A DNA stretch of 64,000 nt, taken from NCBI GenBank assembly GCA_038064515.1, contig JBBTSY010000004.1:96585-160584 (forward strand). Reading direction: 5' to 3'. A program made the translations under genes and the position numbers. Shown one piece after another: positions 1,088 to 45,094 of the stretch (within the stretch, counting starts at the first letter, position 1; each line of letters begins with the position of its first letter). The notes below the pieces were generated by a model, which was given only the letters and a program-made list of their open reading frames with translations, searched no databases and was not told the DNA's origin. Source of the stretch: Patescibacteria group bacterium. GTDB taxonomy: Bacteria > Patescibacteriota > Minisyncoccia > 2-02-FULL-40-12 > GWA2-44-9.

Positions 1088-1160
1088 TGCGCCCACCAGG
1101 ACTCGAACCTGGGACCTTCTCCTTAAAAGGGAGCAGCTCTACCAACTGAGCTATGGGCGC
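1088..1160 (-). tRNA. tRNA-Lys: tRNA-Lys, anticodon TTT (UUU), 73 nt, no encoded CCA.
   Basis: The reverse complement folds as a cloverleaf: acceptor GCGCCCA/TGGGCGC, D-arm GCTC-AGTTGGTA-GAGC, anticodon loop CTTTTAA (anticodon TTT), T-arm CCAGG-TTCGAGT-CCTGG, discriminator A. Confidence 0.8.
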
Positions 1161-1411
1161 ATTCTTATAAATCCTTCATCAACCATCTTCTCAATGTAAT
1201 CCTTCCTCTTTAGTTTTTTCAATTTTCTTTCCACGCTTCTCGCCTCAACCAACGTATCATACTCCTGACTTAAGACTAGACGCAGTCTACCTAACCTCTT
1301 TGTTGATGGAGTATATCCTCCTAAGTGGTGTTTTAGCCTTTCATCCAAATTTTCCGTACTACCAATGTAATACCTATTATATTCACTTTTAAGTATGTAG
1401 ACGTAATACAT
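1151..1411 (-). CDS. GIY-YIG (URI-domain) nuclease-family small protein, 86 aa. Its last three codons and stop (ATG CGC CCA TAG = MRP*) are supplied by the 5' end of the tRNA-Lys gene.
   Basis: Translation MYYVYILKSEYNRYYIGSTENLDERLKHH shows the GIY-(x10)-YIG motif with the conserved R/H/E/N. Confidence 0.7.
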   Translation of the reverse strand: MYYVYILKSEYNRYYIGSTENLDERLKHHLGGYTPSTKRLGRLRLVLSQEYDTLVEARSVERKLKKLKRKDYIEKMVDEGFIRMRP

Positions 1412-4449: not shown

Positions 4450-5514
4450 TTACGCTTTTCGGAGTGCGTACGTTCCGTCTTCGTTTTTTACGAAGTGAGT
4501 ATTGTCTTGGAGATTCAAAAGAATGGTGTTCTCTTTAACCATGCGTGCGTCCATGACGCGCGCCACGAGATCACTCTTTGCCAAAGGATGGGCAGAGTTG
4601 CGGAGAATATCTACAAGCACCTCTTTAACGGTTCCTGACTTATAACCCCATTCGGCAAGAGCATACATGCCGCGGCCCACGAGCACGAAGCGATTATCCT
4701 TAATCAGTTCGTTATGGACGGTCTGGATATTTACCGATTTCTGATCATTGAAATTGGCAGTATTGATGAGTTTAGCGATATCGGCAAAATGACGGGCTTC
4801 GCCTTCTTTTTTCATAATAAGATAGGCTTTATCGCGAACGCCCTTTGGCCTCACTTCGGGCCACGTAGCCAAACCAACTTCTTTAAAGATGTTCCTGGAA
4901 AGATCCTTGGAGATTGCCATGCACGCAGTAAGTTGTTTTTCTGAAAAGTCTGGGCCATTTGAGGCTACGACGCCTTGTTCAAGGGCAAAGTTGTAAACCT
5001 GCTGTTCCGATACAACCGCGCCTTTCTTTCCGAAAGCGGCGGTAAGAGAGTTAATGACCCGGTGGAGCTGATCAGATTTTTTCTGATCGATCGCCCAAAA
5101 AACATGATAATGATCATTCTCGTCGAATTTTACGAGTTCCTTATTGAAGGTAAGGATAAACGACAAAGAAGCATTTATTGCATCGTACTTCTCGGTGCCG
5201 CTGAACGCGTTGAAAAGATCTCGCTCCTTCATGATGCCACCCTCCTTGGATAATATAGCCTTGATAGCGCTTATATATTTCAGGACATCTTTGTGGTCGC
5301 CCGTTGATTTTGCGAGTTGAGTAAGCGTCGATTCTTCAATCTGCCGGACGCGCTCTCGAGTGATGCTGTAGCTCTGGCCGATAGACTCAAGCGTTTCACG
5401 CTTGCCATTTTGAAGACCAAAACGCCGAGTAACAATATCTCGGTTTCGTTCGGAGAGAGGTTTGATAATACTGGCTATCGTGGCTCTTAATGTTTTGAGG
5501 TCTTGTTTGTTCAT
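4450..5514 (-). CDS. Putative transcription regulator: a sigma-70 region-4-like HTH (N-terminal) fused to a C-terminal HARE-HTH domain. The start is taken as the ATG at 5514; the ORF track alternative is a GTG at 5526.
   Basis: LSERNRDIVTRRFGLQNGKRETLESIGQSYSITRERVRQIEESTLTQL resembles sigma70 region 4. C-terminus ...EARHFADIAKLINTANFNDQKSVNIQTVHNELIKDNRFVLVGRGMYALAEW resembles HARE-HTH. Confidence 0.5.
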   Translation of the reverse strand: MNKQDLKTLRATIASIIKPLSERNRDIVTRRFGLQNGKRETLESIGQSYSITRERVRQIEESTLTQLAKSTGDHKDVLKYISAIKAILSKEGGIMKERDLFNAFSGTEKYDAINASLSFILTFNKELVKFDENDHYHVFWAIDQKKSDQLHRVINSLTAAFGKKGAVVSEQQVYNFALEQGVVASNGPDFSEKQLTACMAISKDLSRNIFKEVGLATWPEVRPKGVRDKAYLIMKKEGEARHFADIAKLINTANFNDQKSVNIQTVHNELIKDNRFVLVGRGMYALAEWGYKSGTVKEVLVDILRNSAHPLAKSDLVARVMDARMVKENTILLNLQDNTHFVKNEDGTYALRKA

Positions 5515-5653
5515 CCTTACACTCACTTAGCATTTGTGGCTTGCCCGTTCGTCTAGCTAGGGGTACCACGCCTGATAGTGAAAACTTAGTTACTTTTTTA
5601 TATAGTATTGACCGCCACACTCCAGAACGCGATGCTAAGTGAGTGTGAGGATT
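5512..5653 (-). promoter_or_regulatory. Conserved ~140-nt leader element (copy 1). A 19-bp long-range inverted repeat (1 mismatch) encloses ~98 nt. The proximal arm GTGAGTGTAAGG abuts the ATG of the regulator gene.
   Basis: Arms are 5515-5533 ccttacactcacttagcat and 5632-5650 atgctaagtgagtgtgagg. A second copy with compensatory arm changes is at 59228-59373. Confidence 0.5.
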
Positions 5654-5710
5654 CATCTCGTTAAATTACCCGTAAGAAAACAATATCATTAATACCGAAT
5701 TAAGTCAAAT

Positions 5711-30933: not shown

Positions 30934-32334
30934 TTAAAAAAACTTACCAATTCTTGGAAAAGGTAAATGCAAGCGATTTAAAATTATTTGAGCAATTCTC
31001 TTGCCCGCTTTCCCGTCGAGTTTATACATATGCCGCCCGATGGTCCTATGCCGCCCATCTTGATTGAGTTTCGGATTTTTTAAATATGCGTTTATCGCGG
31101 CAATCCATTCATCGGCGCTATACACCACTTTCGTACCTCCAAGCGCTACTAAACTGGCCAGACAATCCTCTTGATTGTAGCGTTTCACACTCTGAACGTA
31201 GGGTTTCTTTTCCCACCCGTCAAAGCTTATCAAAATTTGCGGTTTGTCGAATACGGTCGCATCCAAACCAAGCGACGTTGCTACATACATTACTATTTCG
31301 GAATAATATACGGAATTTCGAAGATGGTCATGCTCATCAGGACGAATCTCCGCACCTTTATAATCATCAGAACGAAGCTGGACGCCGGGAGTTTCAAAAA
31401 TAAACCTTGGATCATTATCGAATTTTGAGAAATCAGCAGGGTGATGAGGATGATTTCGAACAAGTATCTGCACATCCGGAAGATTTCCTGCATCCATTGC
31501 ATCTCTTAAAATCTGCGCGAGTTGCCAATCAGTATCCGAAAGGATGGAACCCGCTGGAGCAAATAAGAGCAACTTCTTTGAAGGGTCCGCACCAATATAA
31601 GCAAAAAACTCCTCACGCGAGAGGGTGGGACCCTCAAGCCACGTATCAAATTGAGGCAACCCTACAACCTGGATTTGTTCAGCATTGCAATCGTGCAGTT
31701 CAATGAGTTCTTCCTTTACCTTTGGACTTGGGCTTAGTATACTCGCGGGAATGACTCGAAGAACACCTTTTGTGGTTGTATTGTCCCAAGAACGAACCAT
31801 CCCAATAAGCGGAATGTTATTCTTGTGGGCTTCTCTATTAAAAAGAACATCTTGTTCACCAAAGATATCCGTAGAAAAGAAAACATACGGATTATATTTC
31901 TTGATAAATGGTTCAAAGATATTTCCAGGCGCAAAGACACTATTGAACCATCGATACAGCGTGCGTGAATAGGGCAAAGAACTTAGAATGGAGGCTGATA
32001 TCTTTAGTCTTTGATAGTTTAAGAACCCAAAAATCGTTTTATTGTTATAAAAATATTCCGCTCGCTGATCTCGAACATATTGAGTATTTTCAAGGAGAAA
32101 TGCGAGGCGATACCAGAATTTACTTTTTGAAGTACGGATAATCGGATCTAGGTCAAATCCCTCAATAATAACATTGGGGCCACCATAATATTTCTCGAAT
32201 AGTTCTTTTTTACTAGGAGGGGCAAAAATAATAATTCTCAAATCAGAATTTGCCCTCAAAATCTTCAATACATCGGTATTGAGAATATTTCGCGCAATAA
32301 AACCATGATAGGCGGTAATAAATAATGTTTTCAT
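30934..32334 (-). CDS. Putative GT-B-fold transferase (TagF/KpsS-like glycosyl- or glycerophospho-transferase). Specific function unknown.
   Basis: 466 aa with …KKLLLFAPAGSI… and …ILVRNHPHHP… motifs. Family assignment is tentative. Confidence 0.3.
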   Translation of the reverse strand: MKTLFITAYHGFIARNILNTDVLKILRANSDLRIIIFAPPSKKELFEKYYGGPNVIIEGFDLDPIIRTSKSKFWYRLAFLLENTQYVRDQRAEYFYNNKTIFGFLNYQRLKISASILSSLPYSRTLYRWFNSVFAPGNIFEPFIKKYNPYVFFSTDIFGEQDVLFNREAHKNNIPLIGMVRSWDNTTTKGVLRVIPASILSPSPKVKEELIELHDCNAEQIQVVGLPQFDTWLEGPTLSREEFFAYIGADPSKKLLLFAPAGSILSDTDWQLAQILRDAMDAGNLPDVQILVRNHPHHPADFSKFDNDPRFIFETPGVQLRSDDYKGAEIRPDEHDHLRNSVYYSEIVMYVATSLGLDATVFDKPQILISFDGWEKKPYVQSVKRYNQEDCLASLVALGGTKVVYSADEWIAAINAYLKNPKLNQDGRHRTIGRHMYKLDGKAGKRIAQIILNRLHLPFPRIGKFF

Positions 32335-33383
32335 TTTAATTTTGCATAGACCTCCAGGTAAGATTGTATCGCCTTACTCATAGTATGTTTTTTTGCCCAT
32401 TCATAGCTTGCATTGCTATATCTTTTCCATAGATCCATGTCCCCAACTAGCTTAAGCAATGCATCGGTGGTGGCTGATATATCGTTTTGTGGAACCAAAA
32501 GACCATTATACCCATCTTTTACAGCGTCCTCAATCCCATTTCCAAGTGTACCTATCACCGGCAATCCGGCCGCGGCTACTTCAAGAAAAACTAAACCAAA
32601 TCCCTCAAAATGATAGCCCTCGTTAATGGATGTCAGAAGAAATATAACAGCTTTTCGATAAAGCTCCTTTAGTTCTTCGTCCGAAATATTTTCCTTAAAG
32701 ATAACTCTTCCCTCGCCATCGTTTGTCTTGATAATATTTTTCAGTCGATGCATATATGCTTGATCCCTCTGGCTACCCACAATGACATATTGAAGATGCG
32801 GCAACTGCTTATACGCCTCTAAAAATGCCGGGATCGAGATATGATATCCTTTTCGAGCTTTTATAGCTCCCACGCTTAGTACGAGAGATCCTGACTGTGC
32901 TTCATGTGTTTGCCTAAACTTCTCCAGATTGATTCCGGGGTTAATAACTTTTGTTCGCAAAGTAGGAATAACTTTCAAAAGTTCTTGCTGCGTGAACTTA
33001 CTTATAGCAACGACGAAATCTGCCTTGTTTAAAGCCCATCGACTTATCCATTTCGTCTTCCAATGGTAAAGAGGCGCTATAGAATAGGTGCCTAGTGCTG
33101 TCAGAACAAATTTCTTATGTTCTGAATTTGCCAACGCAACGATCATCCCTGATTGGTTAAGATCTAGGGCGTGAATAATGTCGTATTTGGCCAGAAGAGG
33201 CCTCAAGCGCCATGCAGATTGAAATAATCGCCATCCTCGACTAAGTATACGAATTCCACTTTCATCTTCAGTATAGACGACTGTTTCATGTCCCGCCGCC
33301 TGAACCCCAGAAATTAAATCAGAGGCATATCTGCCCCACCCAGATTTTGGATTTATCGTGGATGTTAAATAGGCTATCTTCAT
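32331..33383 (-). CDS. GT4 (GT-B) glycosyltransferase.
   Basis: EGFGLVFLEVAAAGLPVIGT (E-x7-E motif region). Confidence 0.7.
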   Translation of the reverse strand: MKIAYLTSTINPKSGWGRYASDLISGVQAAGHETVVYTEDESGIRILSRGWRLFQSAWRLRPLLAKYDIIHALDLNQSGMIVALANSEHKKFVLTALGTYSIAPLYHWKTKWISRWALNKADFVVAISKFTQQELLKVIPTLRTKVINPGINLEKFRQTHEAQSGSLVLSVGAIKARKGYHISIPAFLEAYKQLPHLQYVIVGSQRDQAYMHRLKNIIKTNDGEGRVIFKENISDEELKELYRKAVIFLLTSINEGYHFEGFGLVFLEVAAAGLPVIGTLGNGIEDAVKDGYNGLLVPQNDISATTDALLKLVGDMDLWKRYSNASYEWAKKHTMSKAIQSYLEVYAKLK

Positions 33384-34534
33384 TGCATTAAAAATTCTTT
33401 AATATTCTGAGCTCGTACACGCCAACTATAGCGCTCCGCGTCAGTACGCGCCTGCTCGGCTCTCTGTTGAGCTAATTCAGGGTTGGAAAAAATCTCTTCT
33501 ATCGCTTGCGTAATGGCTTTCGAATCGCTGGGTTTGACTAGAAATGCACTGGCTTCGCTAAGTACCTCCCGAATCGAGGGTAAATCCGAAGCAATAATAG
33601 GTCTGCGCGATGCCATATACTCAAAAAGCTTTAGTGGCGACATAAAGTGCGCGAAGTGAGGCTGATTTGGATATGCCATAACCAAAACATCAAGAGCTTT
33701 CAAATATTTCGGAATACTACCATGCGGCTGACGGCCCGCAAAAATTACTGCATCGGATGGGATGCCTAACTCTTTGGCAAGCCGCTGGGATTCCTCGACA
33801 TCCTCTTGAACTCCTCCGACGATCACCAGCTTGCTTTCTTTATGATTTTGGTGGAATGCGGAAAATCCATCCATTAAAAAATCCACTCCCTTAGACATGC
33901 CAAGCGTCTTTAATTGACCGACATAGCCTACTATCCATGCTTTTGGGGGCAGGCCGAGTTCCTTTCGCGCCTGCTCTTGAGTTATATCGATATCGAACTG
34001 CTCGATATCGACTCCGTCATGGGCCACCAGTATTCGATCCGGCGAAAATCCAAATTTAACAAATTCATCTTTAATACCTTGCGATATAACAACAATCTTT
34101 ATATCGATACTTAGAAATCTTCTATAGAAAAATTCTCGGCGATGAGCGAATCGATGTGCCTCAAAGAAAAGACCAGCTCGAAAAAAGCTAAGCAGATAAA
34201 GCGGTAGCTCCTCTCGCGAGTAGACAATTTCGGGATTACGTCTGAATGTATAAACTGCAAGGATGACAGCGGAAATCAAATTCTTGATGCCTACCGCCAA
34301 CTGGTCAAACTTTCCCGGTAAATGAAAATCGGGAGACCATAATCGTTTAAAAGTAAAAGAATGCTGAACTTGATAATACTCAAAGAAATCTTGATCAGTA
34401 TTTCTTCGATGAGGTGCTAGAAGAGTTACTTGTGATCCTGCATTGGCAAATGCTTCGCACATTTTCGCAATCTGAACACCGTAGGCCTTTTCGGTCGGCA
34501 ATCTAAGATTAACAATATAGAGCAAATTAGCCAT
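33380..34534 (-). CDS. GT4 glycosyltransferase.
   Basis: …MSPLKLFEYMASRRPIIASD…. Confidence 0.65.
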   Translation of the reverse strand: MANLLYIVNLRLPTEKAYGVQIAKMCEAFANAGSQVTLLAPHRRNTDQDFFEYYQVQHSFTFKRLWSPDFHLPGKFDQLAVGIKNLISAVILAVYTFRRNPEIVYSREELPLYLLSFFRAGLFFEAHRFAHRREFFYRRFLSIDIKIVVISQGIKDEFVKFGFSPDRILVAHDGVDIEQFDIDITQEQARKELGLPPKAWIVGYVGQLKTLGMSKGVDFLMDGFSAFHQNHKESKLVIVGGVQEDVEESQRLAKELGIPSDAVIFAGRQPHGSIPKYLKALDVLVMAYPNQPHFAHFMSPLKLFEYMASRRPIIASDLPSIREVLSEASAFLVKPSDSKAITQAIEEIFSNPELAQQRAEQARTDAERYSWRVRAQNIKEFLMQ

Positions 34535-35489
34535 TCACATTATTTGTGGGATCAAAAAGATTGAGCCAAGTTAATGCGGCCTTCCTATATTTCGCCCAGA
34601 AATCTGATTCGAGCATTACGTTTTCAAATAATTCCCGGGCCATCGGAATAATATCTTTTTTTGTTAATACCACCGCTTGTACGGCTTGCCAAACAGATTC
34701 ATTTTCTTCAATTCCCGGGGCCTCTTTCCTTAAATTTACAAGAAGGTTTGAAAGCTTAGTGTGTTGGATTGCCGGTTGACCCGAAAAGACAGCTAATCCA
34801 AGATGGTCAATAATTTTTTTTGCGAAAACTCCGCACCAAATATCATCAAAACGATCAAAAGGATAGCCTAATCCCTGAAGGCCAAAATACATCAGTGGAG
34901 CAATTTTTATGTTAAAAGCCACATTCATCCCGCACATTGGAAAAAAGTTCCACCTTGGTATCACCTGATCTTGACCATTAAATGGCAAGCCGGGTCTCGC
35001 AAGAGACATCACGGCATCATAATCCGGGTATAAATCCCAGAGACCATGACTCAAAATGACTTCCGACTTTCCCCTGATAAAATAAGGATAACCCCTAGTA
35101 TATTGATCACCGGTCGCAACCCAATTTAGATCAACCTGGCGATTCAAATTTTGAAAGTGATGAGAAACAAAAGATTCCTTATCTGCAGTTGGGTAGCAGT
35201 CATCATCGAGAACAATTACCCAATCAACATTTTGCCGATAAGCGACATATACTCCAAATGATTTAATAGCCGATGTTTTCCGGGGAATTATCCAGGAGTT
35301 ATCTCCGAGTTCAGCATCAATCTCCGAATGTGAAAAATGATTGGGAAAATATGCTCCAAGATCGCTCTTTCGAGGAAGATCCTCAACTATTATTAATTTA
35401 TCTCTATCCCAGCCCCAAGCTGAAATCCATTTTAAAAGATCAGCGGGCCTGATTGATGCCACAATTACTCGATATTCATCTCTTTTCAT
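34527..35489 (-). CDS. Reversibly-glycosylated-polypeptide (RGP) / UDP-L-arabinopyranose mutase homologue (GT75).
   Basis: Blocks match plant RGP/UAM: VIVLDDDCYP, RGYPYFIRG, SHGLWDLYPDYDA, FFPMCGMNVAF, YFGLQGLGYPFDRFDDIWCGV, IIDHLGL, HTKLSNLLVNLRKE. Confidence 0.65.
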   Translation of the reverse strand: MKRDEYRVIVASIRPADLLKWISAWGWDRDKLIIVEDLPRKSDLGAYFPNHFSHSEIDAELGDNSWIIPRKTSAIKSFGVYVAYRQNVDWVIVLDDDCYPTADKESFVSHHFQNLNRQVDLNWVATGDQYTRGYPYFIRGKSEVILSHGLWDLYPDYDAVMSLARPGLPFNGQDQVIPRWNFFPMCGMNVAFNIKIAPLMYFGLQGLGYPFDRFDDIWCGVFAKKIIDHLGLAVFSGQPAIQHTKLSNLLVNLRKEAPGIEENESVWQAVQAVVLTKKDIIPMARELFENVMLESDFWAKYRKAALTWLNLFDPTNNVNG

Positions 35490-35542
35490 ATAGATATCTC
35501 CTAAATTATTACCTCGGATAGTATGTTAATTTTAAGCAAACG

Positions 35543-36562
35543 TCAATTAAAAGAATTTTTTAAAATTTCCTTAGCTCTATCTCTTATTGTGTGTTCGGAT
35601 AAAACTTTATTATAGCCATTTCTGGTTATTCTTTCCCTTTCCTCGCGATTGTGTAAGTAATGCTCCACTAAGCTAGATAGCTCCGTTGCATTATGGAAAT
35701 AGACTATATCCTCTCTATCTAAAAATAACTCGGCTAATCCTTCTTTGTAGTCGCTTACGACCATGGCTCCGGAAATCATCGCCTCAAAACTTCTTAGATT
35801 TGGTCCTTGAGTTAGATCGTCTTTAACATGAATATTTACAACAATTTTACTTTTTTTATATATATCAAGCATCGCCTGGCCACGAATCTGTCCCTGGTAA
35901 AATTCCTTCAAAGAACTATCAGCCCATTCGGGAGTACCCCAAATTTTCAAATTGAAATTCTTAATCTCGGCAAGTACTTCCTCTCTTTCATGGTGACTAG
36001 CCAAGGTTCCTATAAAGGCTATATCGTGCTCCTTGTTTTCTAGAATATCTCGAATTGACTGACTATCCGACTTAAAGGCAGCCATCGGAAGGTAACAAAT
36101 ATTTTTAAACCCTTCCGATTCTAAGGCCTTCTTTGAATTATGGTCCATGACAAAGAATTGGTCATAATGCGAAGCAAATCTTTTTAATGTTCCAATATTC
36201 CACATTCCGTCAGGAAACCAGTTCACTGCTTTTACTCCATTGCGCCTAATTTCATCAACAGTTCGTACGGAAAGATGTTTACCTTTGATCACTACAAATA
36301 AATCTGGCTTGGAATTTTTTATGATTTTTAAGACTTTTGACTGCAATTTGGCTCTAGCTAATTTTATTAAACTTCCCAACAAAAAGGAGGCTAGATAATT
36401 ATTTACAAATTTTTGCGGTATTTGGTAAGGAATTTTAATATTAAATAAAGAATAGTATGTAAATAGAACTTCCGCATGATGACCTAAACTTTTAAAAGCA
36501 TCGGCGAGCGGCTTAGAAATTGCTTGCTCTTTAGTATCGTGAGTGGCAATTATAATTTTCAT
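35543..36562 (-). CDS. CgeB-family (DUF3880 / Glyco_trans_1_2-like) protein.
   Basis: C-terminus …VYFHNATELSSLVEHYLHNREERERITRNGYNKVLSEHTIRDRAKEIL is typical of CgeB-like proteins. Confidence 0.5.
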   Translation of the reverse strand: MKIIIATHDTKEQAISKPLADAFKSLGHHAEVLFTYYSLFNIKIPYQIPQKFVNNYLASFLLGSLIKLARAKLQSKVLKIIKNSKPDLFVVIKGKHLSVRTVDEIRRNGVKAVNWFPDGMWNIGTLKRFASHYDQFFVMDHNSKKALESEGFKNICYLPMAAFKSDSQSIRDILENKEHDIAFIGTLASHHEREEVLAEIKNFNLKIWGTPEWADSSLKEFYQGQIRGQAMLDIYKKSKIVVNIHVKDDLTQGPNLRSFEAMISGAMVVSDYKEGLAELFLDREDIVYFHNATELSSLVEHYLHNREERERITRNGYNKVLSEHTIRDRAKEILKNSFN

Positions 36563-37470
36563 TTAATAATTTTGCTTAATACTTGCCTCGCCTCTGTTTC
36601 CCAAGATGGCATTTCATATCCTAAGGCTATGGCTTTTTGTACGTTAAGCCACATCTGCTTAGGCCGCCGAGCTATGTGGCCCGCAGAAGTTTCATCAACT
36701 GATATCTCGGTCACTTCGCCAGAAAAATGCGGGAAATGATTCCGTATCACACCCCATACTTCCGCCTTATTAACTACATTAAAACTTCCCAAGTGGATAA
36801 TACCGGGCCTGAAATTTCTTAGAAAATCAATAACAAGGTAACTGAAAGTCTTAGCGCTGATCGGATTAATAACTACATCGTTAAAAAGCGTAAAAGACCT
36901 ATTTTCGGCGGCAGCCCTCACAAACCACTGCACAAAACTGGGATGAGCTCCCTTGGGCCGAATACCAATAGGGTTTGCCCGAATAATAAGACCTTTTTTA
37001 TAGTTCAGCACCTCCTGTTCGGCTAGAATTTTGGTTTCACCATAGTAGTTTAGCGCTTGAGGTATATCTTCCTCTCGATAGTCACCGGTATCTCCAGAGA
37101 ACACCATGGGTGTAGATACATAGAGCAGAGGAGTATCGTATCGCTGGGCAAGCATTACTATATTCTTCGTTCCATCAACATTAATCCGATAGCATTCATC
37201 TCTGTTGAGCTCGCAGTAATTCACATCAGTAACGGCAGCACAGTGAATGATAGCGCTTATATTTTTATATTTATTTCTTACTTGCTCGACAGATTTAGAT
37301 GAAGAAATATCCAATTTCAGCCTTTCTATTCCTGGATTTAAAAGTTCTGGGTTAGAATTATAGGTCCCAATAATATTAAACTCCTCGCCTTTCAAGACTT
37401 TGCATAATTCAAATCCAAGCATCCCCGATGCTCCTGTAACCAAAATGGTTTTAGTGCGATTTTCGATCAT
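36559..37470 (-). CDS. NAD(P)-dependent sugar epimerase/reductase, RmlD-like (dTDP-4-dehydrorhamnose reductase family).
   Basis: ILVTGASGMLGFEL Rossmann motif; length and layout are RmlD-like. Confidence 0.6.
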   Translation of the reverse strand: MIENRTKTILVTGASGMLGFELCKVLKGEEFNIIGTYNSNPELLNPGIERLKLDISSSKSVEQVRNKYKNISAIIHCAAVTDVNYCELNRDECYRINVDGTKNIVMLAQRYDTPLLYVSTPMVFSGDTGDYREEDIPQALNYYGETKILAEQEVLNYKKGLIIRANPIGIRPKGAHPSFVQWFVRAAAENRSFTLFNDVVINPISAKTFSYLVIDFLRNFRPGIIHLGSFNVVNKAEVWGVIRNHFPHFSGEVTEISVDETSAGHIARRPKQMWLNVQKAIALGYEMPSWETEARQVLSKIIK

Positions 37471-37523
37471 GACTTGCGTTGCTATTCAATCCAATACAGC
37501 ACATCATAAGCGAATAACGAAGG

Positions 37524-38195
37524 CTAGATTTTATAGAGAATAGGAAATCCTGCGCATCCTCTAATTTCTTTAATCCTAAATCCTATTTGCTTCGCCCAAA
37601 TTCTAAAATCCGTAATAGTCCAAAATCTCACATGTTCGCGGGGATGAAGCTTCGGAAGATAGGGAAAGCGACCGAATAAAAGTTTAAACCGAAACCATAG
37701 ATACCCTAAATTTGGCGTCGTGATGATAATTCCCTGTTTATAATGCGTTCTCATTTTTAAAAGCACTTCTTCGCAATCTCTGACATGCTCTATAAACTCC
37801 GCCATGATTATAAAATCATAATTTCCCGGTAAACTAAACTGTTCACTCGTAACGTCGTCCTGAAGCGCTTTTAATCCGATCTTTTTTATACTAGCAACAG
37901 ATACGGCTGAAGAATCTACGCCTACACTATCGTGATTTATCAGATTAAGACTCAATAAGAAACTTAATAATTCCCCTCCACCTGCCCCGATATCAGCTAC
38001 ATGAAAGCTATCGGATCTTGTTTTCTTTAATTGCTTCTTCAATAAGGCAACGATTATGTTAAACCGGTTTCTAAATTGGTCCTTATCTCGGCTCCAAAAT
38101 TTATCCCAATCCTTCTCAAGATAGAAATTTTTACGGGTAAATGTATAAGCAATCTCTTGTTTAAGATAACGAAGGAATCCTTTTATTTTTTTCAT
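37524..38195 (-). CDS. SAM-dependent methyltransferase.
   Basis: VADIGAGGGELLSFL. Confidence 0.6.
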   Translation of the reverse strand: MKKIKGFLRYLKQEIAYTFTRKNFYLEKDWDKFWSRDKDQFRNRFNIIVALLKKQLKKTRSDSFHVADIGAGGGELLSFLLSLNLINHDSVGVDSSAVSVASIKKIGLKALQDDVTSEQFSLPGNYDFIIMAEFIEHVRDCEEVLLKMRTHYKQGIIITTPNLGYLWFRFKLLFGRFPYLPKLHPREHVRFWTITDFRIWAKQIGFRIKEIRGCAGFPILYKI

Positions 38196-38199
38196 GAAA

Positions 38200-39378
38200 T
38201 TATAAGCTTTGAAAGAAGTCTTCTAATCGTTCGCCGACTGATTGATTGCTGAAGTGATCCAAAATATATTGCCGGGCTTCTAAACCCATCTGCTTTCTCT
38301 CTTCAGTATTAACGGCCAATCGCTCCATCGCTCGTGCCAATGCATTATCATCCCCCGGAGGAACGAGGATGCCCGTTTTATTGTTTATCACAGTCTCACT
38401 TAAAGAACCACTCGCCGTAGTAATGACAGGGGTACCACATGCTTGAGCCTGTAACATAAGCAACCCAAATTGTTCTTCCCAACCTTCGTATGGCTGTGAT
38501 GGGTGGATCATGACATCTGCTTGGGCATACAATGGCGCAAGCTCATTTACTGGCTGCCACGGAAGAACAGTGACACTATTTTGAATCCCTAAGTCTTTAA
38601 TTGTTTGATCAACCTGATTTTTGAGTTCTCCCATACCAATAAACAGAAGGTGGGTCGCGGGAACTTTTTTATGCGTCTCCGCAAACGCTCTTAGAGTAGG
38701 GAGGGGGCCCTTGCGTTCAGTAAACGTGGCGGAATAAACAAAAATAACCTTATCGCCTAAAGAGTACCTGTCACGCAAATTTGTAGAACTTATTGGCTTA
38801 AATACATCGGTATCAATCCCAGTTTGAGGGATAACGGCTGTCTTCAATTTTGGATTCTCCTTAAAGTATGGCTTATGAATCTCAAATGCTCTTTCCATAC
38901 CACAGAGACTGCCAGCACTCAATCGAATGTTTTGATGAAGCAGCCACTCGGTTATTCGCAACTTCATCCCCGACATCCTCTCCTTGTATGAGACATTTTG
39001 CCAGGTAAAAAAAACGTGCTTCATCCCTAATTTTTTTGCCAGTCTGCTATATAAATACGTAACGAGAAGATTCGGCTCGTATGAACTATAGAGAATGTCT
39101 CCAGGTCTTGCATGAGATCGTAGAATTGCGCCTAATCCCGGCATCCACCCCTTAAGATGTCCCCGAATGAGTGGGTAGGTTGAATGATAAAAAGGAGCTG
39201 GAGTAGTAAATGTTGCGAAACCTTCGCGTATTTTCGGATATACAATCACCTTCTTACCCTTAGTAGATTTCCATTCTTTGGGCAAAACAAAGACGAGTTG
39301 CTCTTTATTTTTAAAGTAATCAAAGACTGGATAGTTATGTTCGTATATGTATGTATAGGCAACAACGAAAATCTTCAT
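38200..39378 (-). CDS. GT4 glycosyltransferase. Start trimmed to MKIFVVAY… to remove the overlap with the next gene.
   Basis: …EGWEEQFGLLMLQAQACGTPVITT…. Confidence 0.65.
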   Translation of the reverse strand: MKIFVVAYTYIYEHNYPVFDYFKNKEQLVFVLPKEWKSTKGKKVIVYPKIREGFATFTTPAPFYHSTYPLIRGHLKGWMPGLGAILRSHARPGDILYSSYEPNLLVTYLYSRLAKKLGMKHVFFTWQNVSYKERMSGMKLRITEWLLHQNIRLSAGSLCGMERAFEIHKPYFKENPKLKTAVIPQTGIDTDVFKPISSTNLRDRYSLGDKVIFVYSATFTERKGPLPTLRAFAETHKKVPATHLLFIGMGELKNQVDQTIKDLGIQNSVTVLPWQPVNELAPLYAQADVMIHPSQPYEGWEEQFGLLMLQAQACGTPVITTASGSLSETVINNKTGILVPPGDDNALARAMERLAVNTEERKQMGLEARQYILDHFSNQSVGERLEDFFQSL

Positions 39379-39379
39379 C

Positions 39380-39994
39380 TTATTCAGTAACGTAGAAGCA
39401 AATCTGGAGGCCAAACAGATTGGGCCACCAATCTCGCAAAGGCTTTCTTCCGTTGGATGATTTAATTCTTTTGACCTTAAACCCCAGCATATTAATTGTC
39501 CTTTCAAAATCCTTTACCGACCAATACCGCAAATGCTCTTTGGGAGCTATCGCCCACTGCTTAGGAAATTTCCCCAAAAGCAATTCTAATCGGAATTTCC
39601 AATATGCCGTATTGGGGATAGAAACCATAACTCCTTTTTTGGCAATTCTCATCGCATCGGCCAATACCTCTTCGGAGTTTACGATATGCTCCAAAAATTC
39701 GGACATAATAATATAATCAAAGCTCTTATCGGGAAAATCAATTGTTTCATCTATGGCTAAGTAGCGAGTTTTGAGTCCTCTTTTTTCGGCTATCTCTAGT
39801 GCCGCTTTCGAAATATCGCATCCGGTATAATCCACTCCATTTTTCTGCACCAAAAACTCCCCAAAAGACCCGTCACCACAGCCAATATCCAAGACACTGG
39901 AACCATTCTCTATCCACTCTGAAAAAATGTTATACCGCGGACGCGATCCGGACTTACCTCTTATCTGCCAATATTCTTCGTAAAAATTTTTCAC
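39380..39994 (-). CDS. SAM-dependent methyltransferase.
   Basis: VLDIGCGDGSFGEFL. Confidence 0.6.
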   Translation of the reverse strand: MKNFYEEYWQIRGKSGSRPRYNIFSEWIENGSSVLDIGCGDGSFGEFLVQKNGVDYTGCDISKAALEIAEKRGLKTRYLAIDETIDFPDKSFDYIIMSEFLEHIVNSEEVLADAMRIAKKGVMVSIPNTAYWKFRLELLLGKFPKQWAIAPKEHLRYWSVKDFERTINMLGFKVKRIKSSNGRKPLRDWWPNLFGLQICFYVTE

Positions 39995-39997
39995 GGT

Positions 39998-41038
39998 TCA
40001 CAATAATTTTTCACCTATCTGCTTGAGCTCTCTGCCCAATATTTCAGGGGTGGCAAATCTTTTGAATTTATTATATGCGTTATCGGCCAAGCTTTCTCTT
40101 AATCCCGGGTTGTTTTTTAATTTTAGTATTGCCGAAGCAAGATTTTCTGGATTTGATTGAATAAGAATCATATCACCTTCATTAAACAATTCCCTTATTG
40201 CCGGCGTGTCGGCCGTAATAATAGGCTTCCTCATTGCCGCGTATTCATATACTTTATTGGGTATTACTCTATTAGTCTTGGCTGTTTGACCGAAAACGCC
40301 CAGGCAAATATTCCCTTGATTTATATACTCGGGCAATTTACCATATTCTACCCGATTTATAAAATTAACATTCTTTATTTCCAAGTCGCCAGCTAATTTT
40401 TTTATTTCTGGATAGGTTTGCCCATCGCCAAGAATATTGAATTTGATTTCATCGTTCTCAAGAAGTTTAGCGGCTTTTATTATACAATCTATGCCCTGGA
40501 GAGGTATAAACGAGCCGTGAAAGTGAACGGCGAATGCGGAATTATTGCGCCCCTCTCTTGGATGAAAAACTTTTTCATCGGTTCCGACAAAAACTCTCCT
40601 GAACTTATCATTTTTGATTCTAAATTCTTTTGCGGCATAGCTAATATGCTCGTTGGTATCGAATAATACACTATCGGCCAAACGCATTGATAGCCAGTCC
40701 AAAAACCAGTAGTAGTGCGCCAAAAAGCTGCCGGGAATAATAATCTTGCGATCATATACATTTGAATCATATAGCGATATAAATGCGTCAAATATAATGG
40801 GTTTTGAAGTAATAAGCCATGCAAACGGTACGATGATCTGCCCCAGAAATCCCACTACCATGACATCATAATCACCCCGAACCTGCCAATGCTTGCGGAA
40901 CAACCGGATGAACTTCAAAATGCCAGGCGAATTATCCTGACACTCGATAATTTCTACACCGTTCTGGCGAAGACCGCTCATAAGGACACGGTTACGTGCA
41001 TATAACGGATCGTACATGCCAAAATAAAGAACTCTCAT
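39998..41038 (-). CDS. GT4 glycosyltransferase.
   Basis: GT-B layout; …VYEYAAMRKPIITAD…. Confidence 0.6.
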   Translation of the reverse strand: MRVLYFGMYDPLYARNRVLMSGLRQNGVEIIECQDNSPGILKFIRLFRKHWQVRGDYDVMVVGFLGQIIVPFAWLITSKPIIFDAFISLYDSNVYDRKIIIPGSFLAHYYWFLDWLSMRLADSVLFDTNEHISYAAKEFRIKNDKFRRVFVGTDEKVFHPREGRNNSAFAVHFHGSFIPLQGIDCIIKAAKLLENDEIKFNILGDGQTYPEIKKLAGDLEIKNVNFINRVEYGKLPEYINQGNICLGVFGQTAKTNRVIPNKVYEYAAMRKPIITADTPAIRELFNEGDMILIQSNPENLASAILKLKNNPGLRESLADNAYNKFKRFATPEILGRELKQIGEKLL

Positions 41039-42081
41039 GGGAATAGATTAAGGATGCGTTTTATGACTTGAGGAATGTTATGCCTTTTGGCATTTTGCCG
41101 AAGAGCTTCACTTATAGCCTCCTTGGCGTTATTATCCAGCGCAACAAGATGTTGTATCTTTGAAACAAGATCGGCTACATCGCCATGAGAGAATAATAAT
41201 TGATCAGCGTATTGCCCGAAATCAGATTTAAATGCGGGATTTGATGTTAAAGTCAAGCAACCTGCCGCCATGGACTCTAGCACCACTTTATCTAGCCCTC
41301 CACGCGGCGTAAGGTTTACCGTAATATGCGCCTGGCGATATATATCAGGCAGTTTATTGTACGGCATAACGCCGGTGAATTCTATAAGATCTTCAATGTT
41401 TAATGTACGCACAAGATTTTTTAAAGACATTAGATAGCTCTCCTCCTCCTTTCTGCCGATCTGACCAATGATTCGAATATGCAAAGGCATTATCTCTCGC
41501 AATTGTGTAGCGGCACGAATTAATGTTTCTAAATTTTTAATAGGCGAGATGCGCCCTACGCTGATAATCTCCCAGCGTTCTGGAGTATTCCAGCTTCTCT
41601 GGCTCGAGAATGCTTCGATATCAATACCATGCCCGGTCTCTATAATTTTTTTACTTGCGATCGACAAGCTTTCCTTCAACGCCGTGACAATTCGATAACA
41701 AAGCTTCTCTGCGATTCGCAATCGCAACGTTACTGCCCGATGCAGATACCAGAAAATAATTCTTTTCCTAAAAAGCATTGCAACCGGCCAAGTAGCAATA
41801 ACAAATACAGGTGCCATGTGCGCAAAAATTCCATTACTCGCAGGTATCACTTTGAAAAGATAATAATAAAATCGAAAAAATTGGGTAAGCTTTGAAGTCC
41901 CGTATTCTCTTCCAAGAGAATACACGGTTACATTACTAGGTAAATCGTAATTGCCTGCCTTGAGGGTTATAACAGAAACCCTCTCAACTTGATGTGCCAT
42001 CTCTCGCAACCACGATACGAAAAATCCCAACAGATCTTCGTTGGAATCCACTTTCTGGGTTATGACAATGAGATGCTTCAT
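41035..42081 (-). CDS. GT4 glycosyltransferase.
   Basis: …GGLDKVVLESMAAGCLTLTS…. Confidence 0.6.
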   Translation of the reverse strand: MKHLIVITQKVDSNEDLLGFFVSWLREMAHQVERVSVITLKAGNYDLPSNVTVYSLGREYGTSKLTQFFRFYYYLFKVIPASNGIFAHMAPVFVIATWPVAMLFRKRIIFWYLHRAVTLRLRIAEKLCYRIVTALKESLSIASKKIIETGHGIDIEAFSSQRSWNTPERWEIISVGRISPIKNLETLIRAATQLREIMPLHIRIIGQIGRKEEESYLMSLKNLVRTLNIEDLIEFTGVMPYNKLPDIYRQAHITVNLTPRGGLDKVVLESMAAGCLTLTSNPAFKSDFGQYADQLLFSHGDVADLVSKIQHLVALDNNAKEAISEALRQNAKRHNIPQVIKRILNLFP

Positions 42082-43175
42082 AGAAGAGATCGAATGCCTT
42101 CGGCATATGCTTGAATACTTTTTACTCGCTCAAACTGTGAGGCAATCACTAAACCCTGATCGCGGAGGCGTTGGTAATATTCTGGATTGCTGAGCAGTTT
42201 ATCTATGCCTTCTTTAATATCATGTGCATTCCACCCCACAACATACCCCGATTCGCCATGAACGATAACGTCGTGCACGATCCCTACGGGCGTTGCAATG
42301 ACGGGAACGCCACATGCCATCGCTTCCAGCACGACACGCGGGCCACCTTCATTGTATGATGGCATAATTAAAATCCTTGAACGATTCATAACATGGGCAA
42401 TTTCTTGAGAGTTAGCGGCCCAGCCGTGAAGTTGAATACGGTTTTGGAGCTGATATTTTTCAATATACTTTTCGATGCGCGCCCGAGCTGGACCCTCTCC
42501 CACAATGTACGCTCTGCCGGAGAGCTGACGTACGGCATCAAGAAATAGGAAAACGCCCTTATTATCGACAAGCCGAGCCACAAAAAGGTAGTCGATATCT
42601 TTGGTGATATCTCGAAGAGTGAATACTTCAAGATCAATGTAGAAAGCCGGGATGTACACAATCTTGTTCTCGGGAACTCCGCCAGAAATCAGAAATCGGG
42701 GAGTCTGGGTACGGTTGATCACCCTAATTTTTGTGGCGGGCTTAGCATCGAACCGGATAAGAGCTTTCGTAAGAAATCGGTATATCAGCTCTTTAACATT
42801 GCCTGCTTTAGGGTATCCCGCGATGTGCATTATTTCAAGCAGGTATGGTATCCCAATTTTTCGGTGGAGTAGCCACGCACCTATGCCATTATAGAACGGC
42901 GGATACTCGTGAACGGTCATTACGTCAAATGTCTGCTTTCGGTGAAGCTGTAGCCCTTTTTTGAGAATGTACAGAGGTTGTAGGATAAGCGGCCAGGGCG
43001 ACGAATGGATGTAGACATTGCCAAAGAGTACCTGGGACACGCTCATGCCGATAGACGGAGTAATCACATCAATCCGCTCCCAATGTTTATGGAATTCTTC
43101 CAGAGTATTGCAAAATGGTCCGCGGCGGCCCCGAGCAATGGCGCGATCTCCGCTAATCATGAGAAGTCTAGACAT
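42078..43175 (-). CDS. GT4 glycosyltransferase.
   Basis: …NEGGPRVVLEAMACGVPVIATPVG…. Confidence 0.65.
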   Translation of the reverse strand: MSRLLMISGDRAIARGRRGPFCNTLEEFHKHWERIDVITPSIGMSVSQVLFGNVYIHSSPWPLILQPLYILKKGLQLHRKQTFDVMTVHEYPPFYNGIGAWLLHRKIGIPYLLEIMHIAGYPKAGNVKELIYRFLTKALIRFDAKPATKIRVINRTQTPRFLISGGVPENKIVYIPAFYIDLEVFTLRDITKDIDYLFVARLVDNKGVFLFLDAVRQLSGRAYIVGEGPARARIEKYIEKYQLQNRIQLHGWAANSQEIAHVMNRSRILIMPSYNEGGPRVVLEAMACGVPVIATPVGIVHDVIVHGESGYVVGWNAHDIKEGIDKLLSNPEYYQRLRDQGLVIASQFERVKSIQAYAEGIRSLL

Positions 43176-43226
43176 AGTATTAATTTTGAATGATGAATTT
43201 AGAATTTCGAATCAATGACTGAATTT

Positions 43227-43616
43227 TCAATTTTCAAACTTTTTTGATCTTGATGAGCTAATGATTCTACCAAAAATTAAAACTAGCTCTCCACACTCCT
43301 GCTTCAAAGCTTGCATCGATGCAAGCTGGTTATCGTAGAAGTCCAGCATCCTAAGCCAATGCTTTGTTTCTTGACATTCTTTCTTACAGATAGATATCTT
43401 GTTAATAAAATCTTTCTTTGAAGATGCGGCATTTGCTTCCATATAGTTGGCTCCGATACTAGTACCAGACCTGATAATTTGGTTGATGAGTGGCCCAGAA
43501 ATATTATTTACCTTCATGCTCTTACATAAACTAATAATATTCTGCCCAAATATAGCCGTCCTCTCTTCTAGGTCATAAATTCGTTTTTTGTCTTCATTCA
43601 TTCTAATTTTATTCAA
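43227..43616 (-). CDS. Four-helix-bundle protein (the family known from 23S rRNA intervening sequences).
   Basis: …IRSGTSIGANYMEANAASSKKDFINKISICKKECQETKHWLRM… matches the diagnostic motif of that family. Confidence 0.65.
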   Translation of the reverse strand: MNKIRMNEDKKRIYDLEERTAIFGQNIISLCKSMKVNNISGPLINQIIRSGTSIGANYMEANAASSKKDFINKISICKKECQETKHWLRMLDFYDNQLASMQALKQECGELVLIFGRIISSSRSKKFEN

Positions 43617-43625
43617 AATTTATAA

Positions 43626-44786
43626 TTATAAATTCGAAATTAATAAGGCAGTTGTCTCATTTTCCATTTTAGTTACATTTAATTTCCGGAGCGTATTGCT
43701 TCCTTCTTCAACAAATTTTTCTCGGATGTCCGGCATCGCCCATAGCGTTTTAATGGCTTCGATGAGATTGAATTCGTCGTTGTATTTTACCAAGAAACCA
43801 TTTTCGCCCTGCTGAATAATTTCTCGATTCCCGCCTACTGCTGTGGTGATAATAGGAACTCGAGCGGCCATAACTTCTAATAGCTGGTGCGAGAAACCTT
43901 CATAACCGGTATTAAGGACGAATAAATCGGCGGCCGCGAGGTACGTGGCAAGCTCTTCGCTTCGCTTCTTCCCCACTAGATAAACTTTCCGATCAAGGCC
44001 CAGGTTTTTTACCATCGCCTGGAGAATCTGAAATTCAGGGCCATCACCGATAATAACCAGCCTAAAGAATTGATTTACCCGCAGTAGTTGAGGCATTATC
44101 TTGATGAGCATGCGGAATCCTTTCCAGGGAACCATGCGACCCGCTGATACGATTATGTTACCTGAAATGCCGATCTGCTTGCGCGCTTCCTCTTTCGATA
44201 GTGGAGAGGGTTCAAATTCAACTCCGTTATAAATCACGGTGATGGCATCCTTGCTAACGCCCCAGCCTCGCACAATTTCCGAAAGATATATCGAAGGAAC
44301 TATGATACGAGCGGCATGTCCGCACACCCATATCTGAATCCGGTGAATAATGCCAATCCATCCTCGGCGCGGTTCTTTCTGGAAATCATTGATTAGAAGA
44401 TTAGTTTTTCCTGACTGAATTGCCGTCTCCCAGGCACGATCGCCTACGATTTTCACGATATATTTCTTTTTGAAAAATCGAGATGCCACGAGTGCCGTTG
44501 GCCCCGCGTTAATGGCATTTAATGCGAAAATTAGATCATGATTTTTCGCCGCAAAGAAAACTTTTATCGCGTAGATTGCGTGCCGCACCGGCCATGGCCA
44601 CTTCTTCCAAATTCTGACTACGGCAAATGGCAGGGATTTGTCTCCCTGATCGCTCCACACCGATGAATAGGTGATAACCGTCACACCGTGTGCCTGGGCA
44701 AGTTTCTTACCAATTATTTGAGCATACGATGCCGGCCCGCCAATCTCGGGACTAAAAATCCCTGTTATAATAAGAAGCTTCTTCAT
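43626..44786 (-). CDS. GT4 glycosyltransferase.
   Basis: …GYEGFSHQLLEVMAARVPIITT…. Confidence 0.65.
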   Translation of the reverse strand: MKKLLIITGIFSPEIGGPASYAQIIGKKLAQAHGVTVITYSSVWSDQGDKSLPFAVVRIWKKWPWPVRHAIYAIKVFFAAKNHDLIFALNAINAGPTALVASRFFKKKYIVKIVGDRAWETAIQSGKTNLLINDFQKEPRRGWIGIIHRIQIWVCGHAARIIVPSIYLSEIVRGWGVSKDAITVIYNGVEFEPSPLSKEEARKQIGISGNIIVSAGRMVPWKGFRMLIKIMPQLLRVNQFFRLVIIGDGPEFQILQAMVKNLGLDRKVYLVGKKRSEELATYLAAADLFVLNTGYEGFSHQLLEVMAARVPIITTAVGGNREIIQQGENGFLVKYNDEFNLIEAIKTLWAMPDIREKFVEEGSNTLRKLNVTKMENETTALLISNL

Positions 44787-45067
44787 CCTGTAGTAGAATT
44801 TTGATTAATTTTTCGATTATATAAATAATCTTTAATTCTAGATTTAATTAAACGTCCGCCTTGGGTAGTCTTTAGATATTTCTCTCTTCGCTTAGCGTCA
44901 CTTTCTTCTAGGCAAGCTTCGTAATAAATTAGTTTCCACGGCATATACCTTTTGGTCGAAAAATTCAATCCTCGATTATGTTCTAATAGGCGTTGCTTTA
45001 AGTCGGAGGTGAAACCAGTATATAGTTCGCCATTCATTTCACTTTGGATAATGTAGGTATAGAACAT
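44783..45067 (-). CDS. GIY-YIG nuclease-family small protein; second copy in the window.
   Basis: MFYTYIIQSEMNGELYTGFTSDLKQRLLEHN. Confidence 0.65.
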   Translation of the reverse strand: MFYTYIIQSEMNGELYTGFTSDLKQRLLEHNRGLNFSTKRYMPWKLIYYEACLEESDAKRREKYLKTTQGGRLIKSRIKDYLYNRKINQNSTTG

Positions 45068-45094
45068 AATCAGATCAAAATTTCACTACGGGAT

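Follow-up and report, generated by a model that had tools for sequence, protein, structure and literature searches.

The 64,000-nucleotide stretch of DNA analyzed here (the window; positions 96,585 to 160,584 of contig JBBTSY010000004.1 from a Patescibacteria group bacterium) carries two copies of a small hairpin-ended element, one in the start codon of a gene for a sigma-70 region 4/HARE-HTH protein (the regulator) and one in the start codon of a gene for a DUF5671 protein. Comparison with related genomes leaves us almost certain that both copies are mobile insertions that rebuilt the start codon they interrupted. The fuller statement, that they are a non-autonomous derivative of a hairpin-ended GIY-YIG element that targets (A)TGRA and is comparable to the Ssn/NTS units, is one that we hold, taken as a whole, with moderate confidence.

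Architecture of the elements

Copy 1 (138 bp, TCCTCACACTCAC...GTGAGTGTAAGGA; 5514-5651, minus strand) is a hairpin-ended element without coding capacity, bounded by 21-nt inverted repeats: a distal arm at 5632-5652 and a proximal arm at 5513-5533, which overlaps the A and the T of the start codon. The repeat finder scored these arms as 95% complementary, with 98 nt between them. Copy 2 (142 bp; 59230-59371, minus strand) occupies the start codon of the DUF5671 gene, and its 21-nt arms (59229-59249 and 59352-59372) are 90% complementary and 102 nt apart. A first-pass annotation of the window had described a ~140-bp element with terminal inverted repeats at these two unrelated genes, both of which are on the minus strand, as well as a related short inverted repeat near 55147, and both observations hold. 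The short relative is a 65-bp intergenic element (CCCCACACTCAG...CTGAGTGTGGGG; 55147-55211, plus strand) that is kept in related genomes and for which the repeat finder reported 20-nt arms at 55146-55165 and 55193-55212. The arm motif, the 14-mer GTGAGTGTRAGGAT, was found five times at ≤2 mismatches, against 0.41 occurrences expected.

On the gene strand, each long copy is laid out as ATCCTCACACTCAC plus 7 variable nt at one end and 7 complementary nt plus GTGAGTGTAAGGAT-G at the other. The outer 14 nt of the arms (ATCCTYACACTCAC) have the same letters at both loci, and the inner 7 nt differ (TTAGCAT in copy 1 vs. (A/T)GACGAG in copy 2) yet remain complementary except for one inner mismatch in copy 2, in agreement with the earlier claim that the outer arm is shared and the inner arm diverges in a paired fashion. 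In each of the two copies, the outer part also has one C.A mismatch, between distal CCTCAC and proximal GTAAGG. The arms had also been said to abut the ATG at both loci; the proximal arms in fact run into it. Interior blocks common to the two copies are real and recur in two further copies described below, but they are weak. The long copies as a group measure 138-143 bp and have no coding capacity of their own, containing only short or out-of-frame open reading frames (ORFs) that begin at the old ATG.

Each copy is surrounded by 4-bp direct repeats, overlooked in the first-pass annotation, which resemble target-site duplications. The gene strand reads gagA[TGAA]TCCTCAC...TAAGGA[TGAA]caaac at copy 1 and tctA[TGGA]TCCTCAC...TAAGGA[TGGA]aaatc at copy 2, and the plus strand reads ttcc[TGAA]CCCCACACTCAG...CTGAGTGTGGGG[TGAA]caac at the short repeat. 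From the sequence and the empty-site alignment described below, the distal TGAA of copy 1 was placed at 5652-5655, with base 5656 being the A of the original ATG, and the proximal TGAA at 5510-5513 (both minus strand); the present start codon (5514-5512) is composed of the element's last base, A, and the TG of the duplication. The TGGA duplication of copy 2 lies at 59226-59229 and 59372-59375 (minus strand), and the TGAA/TGAA flanks of the short relative lie at 55143-55146 and 55212-55215.

Inverted repeats that flank a ~100-bp AT-rich segment near a gene start could also belong to an invertible promoter (inverton). We regard this explanation as highly improbable given that all independent assemblies (three to four per copy) show one orientation, that the copies have direct-repeat flanks and empty sites, that no recombinase was found in the window ORFs scanned, and that most copies lack a convincing promoter in either orientation.

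Empty sites and the rebuilt start codon

We compared the copy 1 site with relatives L013, L014, L015, and L016 and the copy 2 site with relatives L019, L020, and L021 (L numbers denote comparison loci). Regulator orthologues at 95%, 83%, and 73% protein identity share SecD-SecF-regulator-DUF8128-TrwB synteny with the window, and the spacer between SecF and the regulator measures 55, 53, and 97 nt in these relatives vs. 197 nt in the window. The alignment at copy 1 shows a clean 142-nt gap in the relatives, the sum of the 138-bp element and 4 bp. Where the window reads ...GGTAATTTAACGAGA[TGAA]-element-[TGAA]CAAAC, the 95% relative has ...GGTAATTTAACGATAATGAATAAAC. At base level, the relatives show ...TTTAACGA(T)AATGAATAAAC and the window shows ...GAGA[TGAA]TCCTCAC...TAAGGA[TGAA]CAAAC. 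At the copy 2 site, the 95% relative reads ...TTGAATTTCTTGCCCAATCTGATACACTTTTTCTATGGAAAATCTC, and the window contains 146 extra nt; the empty site is present in L019, L020, and L021. In all, the element is absent from the copy 1 leaders of the 95%, 83%, and 73% relatives and from the copy 2 leaders of the 95% and 71% relatives. Terminal inverted repeats, a flanking duplication, precise empty sites, and a small non-coding body are the features of MITEs (miniature inverted-repeat transposable elements), and the copies have all of them.

Because the empty sites in the relatives already have an ATG, the start codon is older than the insertion. Every family member terminates in ...GGA and TG opens the duplicated target, so the ATG was rebuilt at the junction nearest the gene and the ORF was left intact. 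The earlier suggestion of a MITE-like mobile element that delivers a promoter, ribosome binding site, and start codon is thus upheld as to its mobile nature, which filled and empty sites, duplications, and copies elsewhere all support, but not as to delivery: the ATG pre-existed and was only rebuilt, Shine-Dalgarno (SD) sites are unused, and a search for an internal sense promoter gave no consistent candidate. The AAGG that had been taken for an SD-like site is not one; this genome hardly uses SD motifs. Likewise, MSVRM is not a real N-terminus. It is an ORF-calling artefact produced by an in-frame GTG inside the arm, and the regulator orthologues start with MNK....

The short element is orthologous in the window, the 95% relative, and the 71% relatives; its flanks are TTCA/TTCA in the window and the 95% relative but TCCA/TCCA in those at 71%. 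TGGA is carried by copy 2 and also by its relative at another locus in the 95% relative. The 3' tetranucleotide may travel with the element and have to match the target.

Covariation in the terminal stem

The outer 13 pairs of the stem are invariant in the four distinct long copies, and six of the seven inner pairs show double-sided changes, with one broken cell. Pairing was preserved in 98.8% of cells; none of 500 shuffles reached the observed pairing or covariation score, and slid controls paired at 31-48%. As an observation, the compensatory nature of the inner changes is confirmed, and further copies keep the pairing. The terminal stem dominates both RNA and DNA folds (RNA, -45 to -48 kcal/mol, with the AUG at the base of the stem), and the loop that it encloses may be 4 nt, 100 nt, or a whole gene. 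A consensus fold of the copies yielded no common helix apart from the terminal stem and no conserved loop structure. The most likely cause of the covariation is a DNA-level need for the two arms to pair, which is more economical than selection on RNA, given that GIY-YIG nuclease genes lie between ends that covary in the same way.

A strong terminal stem at the AUG that shows compensatory changes is also what a native cis-regulatory RNA, such as a riboswitch or thermosensor common to unrelated genes, would present, and such an RNA was among the earlier proposals. As an origin of the element it is very improbable. The element is absent from the same leaders of relatives (95%, 83%, and 73%), it has target duplications, only the terminal stem covaries and no internal helices are conserved, and Rfam returned no match at gathering or permissive thresholds, even at E ≤ 1. 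A further proposal, a pair of binding sites for a regulator, found no support.

GIY-YIG elements with the same kind of ends

A metagenome-assembled genome (MAG) of the same species (NCBI GCA_964360865.1; L024) provided ~1.7 kb of sequence beyond the window. It contains an element that reads attA[TGGA]TCCTTACACTCACCGAGCC-tt-ATG...87-aa ORF...GGCTCGGTGAGTTGTGAGGA[TGGA]t, and the ORF is a GIY-YIG catalytic domain (PF01541, 4e-18). The left end of this element, TCCTTACACTCAC, equals the proximal arm of copies 1 and 2, T variant included, and stands at the same TGGA junction; the inner 6 nt form yet another complementary pair. A glycosyltransferase-4 gene has this element precisely in its ATGGA start codon, and the empty site is seen in three relatives. 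Through this left end, the window copies share their ends with a longer protein-coding element of the same genome, a further mark of a MITE. The L024 contig ends 5 nt past the element.

Within the window, a 308-bp element (44786-45093, minus strand) has 20-nt inverted ends of a TCCCGT type (TCCCGTAGTGAAATTTTGAT / ATCAAAATTCTACTACAGGA), a TGAA duplication (44782-44785 and 45094-45097, minus strand), and a single ORF, which encodes a 94-aa GIY-YIG protein (44783-45067, minus strand; PF01541, 6e-18). It sits where two glycosyltransferase genes share an ATGA stop/start overlap, and its nuclease ORF terminates on the TGA within the duplicated TGAA, so that an ATGA overlap with the host gene is re-created. 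An unrelated genome of the Candidate Phyla Radiation (CPR; L026) encodes a 55%-identical GIY-YIG protein between related ends of 19-20 nt (CCCCTCACCCAG...; CCCCTCACCCAGAAAGCTT...), with the ORF starting 2 nt past the left end; a weak Y1_Tnp match adjoins this element and lies outside its ends.

In all three of these independent elements, GIY-YIG is the only ORF, starting 2-26 nt past the left end and stopping inside or just beyond the right end. The proteins match PF01541 only and are 84-94 aa long, the elements are ~300 bp, and the repeats on the two sides pair with each other. Among over-called database homologues, two of nine start with MDP/MNP, corresponding to ATG-RAT-CCn, and one back-translates to a TCCCGTT end. 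GIY-YIG homologues lie mostly on contigs of 0.5-1.5 kb, as repeats do. The closest solved chain was UPF0213 protein BH0048 (1ZG2, E = 1.3e-7), not a characterised Ssn, and a match to SLX1 was weak. Judged from shared ends, junction, and co-occurrence, the 138-bp copies quite probably belong with the GIY-YIG elements. We rejected the idea that the MITE interiors are deletion derivatives of the GIY-YIG genes, for which local alignments were no better than shuffles (z < 2).

Another GIY-YIG gene (86 aa; 1151-1411, minus strand) is differently organised. It lies in an insertion of ~300 bp (1151-1473) where a tRNA gene (1088-1160) has its 5' end; 11 bp of the tRNA start (GCGCCCATAGC) are duplicated, and there are two 5' hairpins. 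This insertion has a different end type, and L013 lacks it. A similar GIY-YIG insertion is present at a tRNA 5' end in L026, with the repeat CCCGTAG.

A serious rival to a GIY-YIG-driven element is an ordinary MITE moved by a DDE transposase encoded elsewhere, with GIY-YIG as cargo or as a nested homing endonuclease. DDE elements typically have terminal inverted repeats with a 4-bp duplication, known homing endonucleases include GIY-YIG proteins, and the insertion at the tRNA gene shows that GIY-YIG genes also occur in another arrangement. Pfam scans of window ORFs (with the 8-16 kb stretch covered through relatives' precomputed Pfam hits) found no recombinase or DDE transposase domain, precomputed Pfam hits at related loci included no transposase with matching ends, and no Y1 HUH transposase was associated with the element ends. 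Moreover, GIY-YIG as the sole ORF of three independent elements, filling the space between the ends, is the layout of an element's own enzyme, and the covarying ends suggest structure recognition. On balance, we consider the DDE explanation unlikely, though it deserves serious weight.

Further copies and a census of related elements

A repeat-pair pattern that did not include an ATG was scanned against a genome collection, metagenomes, and a viral collection. The metagenome scan recovered a copy in the start codon of a ribosomal protein L31 gene (L003, identical to L005) and a copy in the start codon of a PilB/GspE ATPase gene (L004), both flanked as A[TGAA]...[TGAA]. In the 95% relative (L019), which is without copies 1 and 2, a TPR gene at a different locus holds in its start codon a copy with TGGA flanks, a copy-2-like interior, and the inner stem of copy 2, which is the pattern that transposition predicts. 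All of these are independent copies with the same junction, and they come from groundwater Parcubacteria. The names of homologues and the Hainich samples indicate that the host of the window, too, is a groundwater CPR bacterium of Parcubacteria/Yanofskybacteria type. The four copies with alignable interiors (copy 1, copy 2, L003, and the second copy in L019) have one orientation relative to the gene.

Two matches were set aside. The sole match in the genome collection (L001) is a long perfect palindrome that extends into the flanks in an unrelated BioB/BioA context and was judged coincidental, and one of the five metagenome matches (L007) is a fold-back assembly artefact. The viral collection contained no copies by the repeat-pair scan, and a protein-based scan of it returned one distant GIY-YIG gene whose ends were not convincing.

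We also conducted a generic census of 205 kb for YCC...GGR hairpin ends with identical 4-mer flanks, with five shuffles for comparison; a stricter version was also run. The census found 13 elements vs. none in the shuffles. Its members include the second end type TCCCGT..., a 26-bp "ends only" element, and a CAAG flank class. A 68-bp element in L016 lies in an ATGA stop/start overlap for which three relatives have the empty site, and the region around an intergenic element in L021 was not alignable with relatives. Two hairpin-ended elements, at L004 1137-1247 (CCCCGTTAGTAGTC...) and L021 12546-12583 (CCCGCCCAAG...), are flanked by CAAG/CAAG and not TGRA, which suggests that CAAG-flanked elements are a second target class in the same superfamily.

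Several assemblies break in or just after the elements: L002 starts in the copy 1 loop, and L009 ends in the copy 2 proximal arm. Three other assemblies (ends of L010-L012) break inside the regulator gene, each at a different point.

Target preference

The window is 91.5% coding, and ATG-AAN or ATG-GAN is the commonest gene start. There are 16 ATGRA sites at start codons, 16 intergenic ones, and 320 within genes. If the target is (A)TGRA and in-gene insertions are lost to selection, start codons should hold half of those that survive. The observed figure was seven of eight ATGRA-flanked events (P = 0.035), or P = 0.11 when the two copies of the first-pass annotation were left out; adding the GIY-YIG element of the window gave eight of nine (P ~0.02, same null, by hand arithmetic). 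The association with start codons is therefore largely explained by target sequence and selection, and any extra preference is modest and putative.

Host genes, promoters, and expression

The regulator gene (4450-5514, minus strand; assigned by Pfam and orthologues) is intact, and on the window branch it has accumulated 15 synonymous vs. 2 nonsynonymous changes. The DUF5671 gene (58292-59230, minus strand) has accumulated 8 vs. 2; exact look-ups of its protein, with either start, gave no match. Judged from these sequence comparisons, both host genes are functional and under purifying selection.

A promoter scan and alignment identified a native promoter-like sequence, TTGACT-17-TATTGT (5680-5708, minus strand), upstream of copy 1 that is kept in the orthologues, and sequence and alignment identified a second -10-like hexamer, TAATTT (5663-5668, minus strand), 6 nt before the old ATG of the regulator gene. 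The native leaderless-type promoter of the DUF5671 gene, TTGAAT-16-TACACT (59383-59410, minus strand), which is kept in L019 and L021, ends 6 nt before the old ATG, and copy 2 now stands between it and the ORF. Because these native promoters lie upstream of the insertions, they probably drive transcription of the element, and the transcript would enclose the AUG in a 21-bp stem. A promoter search inside four copies found no consistent sense-strand promoter; the only recurrent match, inside copies 1 and 2, was an inward antisense TACACT made by the T variant of the proximal arm. A TAnnnT hexamer stands 4-9 nt before the ATG of 13 of 39 genes vs. a background of 10%, and SD motifs are nearly absent from window upstream regions, which suggests that leaderless mRNAs are common, with many operons having a leaderless first gene. 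Ribosomes translating the nuclease ORF of the coding elements would stop at the host ATG or 12 nt short of it, making a device that couples the nuclease ORF to the host gene plausible.

These features bear on whether an element of mobile origin has since been co-opted as a translational or transcriptional gate, with the stem hiding the AUG and RNA selection keeping the pairing. The probable transcription from native promoters, the stability of the RNA stem (-45 to -48 kcal/mol, AUG at its base), the purifying selection on host genes, whose expression must pass the stem, and the shared orientation of the four copies with alignable interiors are all compatible with a gate. Nonetheless, stems with this covariation also border GIY-YIG genes and copies in intergenic DNA, where no AUG is involved, the copies are recent and lineage-specific, and they lack a conserved loop structure. 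In addition, a pair that would be G.U on the antisense strand is a C.A mismatch in the sense RNA of copies 1 and 2, and the upstream short ORFs from the old AUG (6, 8, 20, 21, and >80 codons) follow no common design. We consider such co-option rather doubtful, and we extend the same doubt to its variants, in which the stem would melt, ribosomes would start at the old 5'-terminal AUG, or an RNase III-type enzyme would process the transcript.

Other features of the window and its relatives

A 780-nt non-coding region (54790-55570) between a gene for an LTD-domain protein and a gene for a 1126-aa protein is nearly identical in the 95% relative and is kept in parts in the 71% relatives. It holds the short element and a GC-rich hairpin (CCCCCAGCCTTACGTAAGGGCTGGG), gave no Rfam match, and could hold a new RNA or regulatory region. 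A perfectly palindromic 18-bp unit (CCTGCCTGCGCAGGCAGG) occurs twice (56556-56573 and 56618-56635) upstream of the LTD-domain gene; it varies by presence and absence, in that the 95% relative lacks one copy and has a near-identical one 20 nt away. Imperfect inverted and direct repeats based on CTTGGTGACA... inside the LTD-domain gene (56237-56350) are probably repeated peptide units.

The 308-bp GIY-YIG element is hosted by a low-GC (about 0.40) island, located at 32000-44000, of glycosyltransferase, methyltransferase, and sugar-modifying genes. A small ORF at 43227-43616, between glycosyltransferase genes, has a "23S rRNA-intervening sequence protein" domain (PF05635). The 73% relative (L016, 5848-7405) contains a diversity-generating retroelement (RVT_1 plus bAvd) between a gene for an RNase_H_2-domain protein and secD that is absent from the window and closer relatives.

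A proposed mechanism and its standing

We propose that the window copies are non-autonomous, MITE-type members of a hairpin-ended family of which the ~300-bp GIY-YIG relatives are the autonomous-looking members. Copy 1 inserted into A|TGAA where the regulator gene begins its coding sequence, and TGAA was duplicated. By analogy with the Ssn nucleases described below, the two ends of the element would pair in single-stranded DNA (ssDNA) as a fold-back, which the GIY-YIG nuclease would recognise and cut at the base of the stem. The fixed 13 outer pairs would serve as a sequence read-out, and the 7 inner pairs would need only to pair. Loops of 4 nt, 100 nt, or a whole gene would be tolerated because the nuclease would read the stem only.

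That the GIY-YIG nuclease mobilises the element through hairpin recognition is, in our estimation, close to an even call but short of one. More tentatively, the elements may represent a new class of ~300-bp minimal bacterial transposon whose sole protein, an ~85-aa Ssn-like GIY-YIG nuclease, reads the element's folded-back ends, and which inserts at (A)TGRA and hence with a preference for start codons, regenerating them. It is possible, and we advance it with the same reserve, that within this class the nuclease ORF is coupled to the host gene via an ATGA overlap and that its MITEs are the 138-bp copies, carried in the leaders of CPR genes that would otherwise be leaderless.

Several points weigh against this proposal. 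We know of no GIY-YIG protein that carries out transposition and, to our knowledge, an 85-aa nuclease of this kind has no strand-joining activity, which would make integration with a 4-bp duplication hard to explain by such a nuclease alone. A 4-bp duplication is, moreover, a classical mark of DDE transposases. The nearest solved structure is UPF0213/BH0048 rather than a characterised Ssn, and the published motif of the Ssn-associated repeats (SRM), HGTCWYN(0-2)YYVSBRHN(0-5)WNVSBRGN(0-2)RNCYNB, had no matches in the window and seven loci. The MITE interiors have no significant similarity to the GIY-YIG genes, with the link between the two consisting of shared ends, junction, and co-occurrence. 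Both flanking tetranucleotides of the orthologous short element changed together, which a one-off duplication does not predict. Finally, the start-codon excess over the null is only modest (P = 0.035; ~0.02 for eight of nine), and the sample is small, at 13 independent events, two of which were noticed for abutting start codons.

If GIY-YIG is truly the mobilising enzyme, a nuclease family would be added to the short list of prokaryotic transposition enzymes, the ~300-bp elements would be among the smallest autonomous elements known, and Ssn-style units would gain genomic evidence of mobility. Apart from this condition, the elements illustrate how a selfish element can be tolerated in a 91%-coding genome by landing on a start codon and rebuilding it. 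They also pose a question for translation, namely how a gene is expressed with 142 nt and a 21-bp stem between its promoter and AUG in a host that is SD-poor and appears to use leaderless mRNAs. In practical terms, such elements leave CPR metagenome assemblies with broken contigs and with false extensions at protein N-termini (MSVRM...).

Comparison with known systems

Rickettsia palindromic elements and the mitochondrial "byp" elements of Magnusiomyces lie inside ORFs and are translated or bypassed. As with the elements described here, they are short hairpin mobile inserts that are tolerated in or near coding sequence, with flanking repeats that keep the frame or codons. In the window, by contrast, the insert precedes the ORF and the start codon is regenerated, and there is no evidence of bypassing.

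Correia elements are Neisseria MITEs that duplicate TA and whose mobilisation is attributed to DDE-type enzymes. They resemble our copies in being 100-150-bp, non-coding, gene-adjacent elements with terminal inverted repeats and a duplication that are co-transcribed, as our copies probably are, and that can form long mRNA hairpins. The elements in this study differ in their TGRA duplication, GIY-YIG partner elements, covarying inner ends, and rebuilt start codon.

In IS200/IS605 elements and REP/RAYT systems, the enzymes are HUH Y1 transposases, each end has its own subterminal hairpin in place of end-to-end pairing, and no target duplication is produced. The likeness lies in very small size, ssDNA hairpin recognition (proposed for the present elements), a tetra- or pentanucleotide target, and gene-less palindromic derivatives. 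Assignment to this group is not borne out, in that the flanking 4-mers of the present elements are duplicated and vary together and no Y1 transposase was found with these ends.

Our literature search on MITEs in CPR bacteria, MITEs that target start codons, and GIY-YIG elements having inverted ends together with duplications identified a single relevant work, on the Ssn nucleases (Neisseria meningitidis SsnA; Chenal et al. 2025, PMC11893778). Ssn proteins are single-domain GIY-YIG, site-specific ssDNA nucleases that require a stem, cleave one strand at a short distance (a few nucleotides) beyond it, and accept any loop or a split stem; the repeat-gene-repeat unit is IS-like, and its movement, for which there is no evidence, has only been hypothesised (PMC11893778). 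The elements described here resemble the Ssn/NTS units in having a single-domain GIY-YIG protein of ~85-95 aa, a gene bracketed by hairpin repeats, and additional gene-less repeats outside genes, and under the proposed mechanism they would also share the needed stem, the dispensable loop, and one-strand cutting near the stem base. They differ in that the element's two ends make up the stem, across a loop of 30-300 nt, whereas Ssn units have a compact 28-nt palindrome on each side, and in that the present elements, hosted by Parcubacteria, show target duplications, filled and empty sites, and insertions in start codons.

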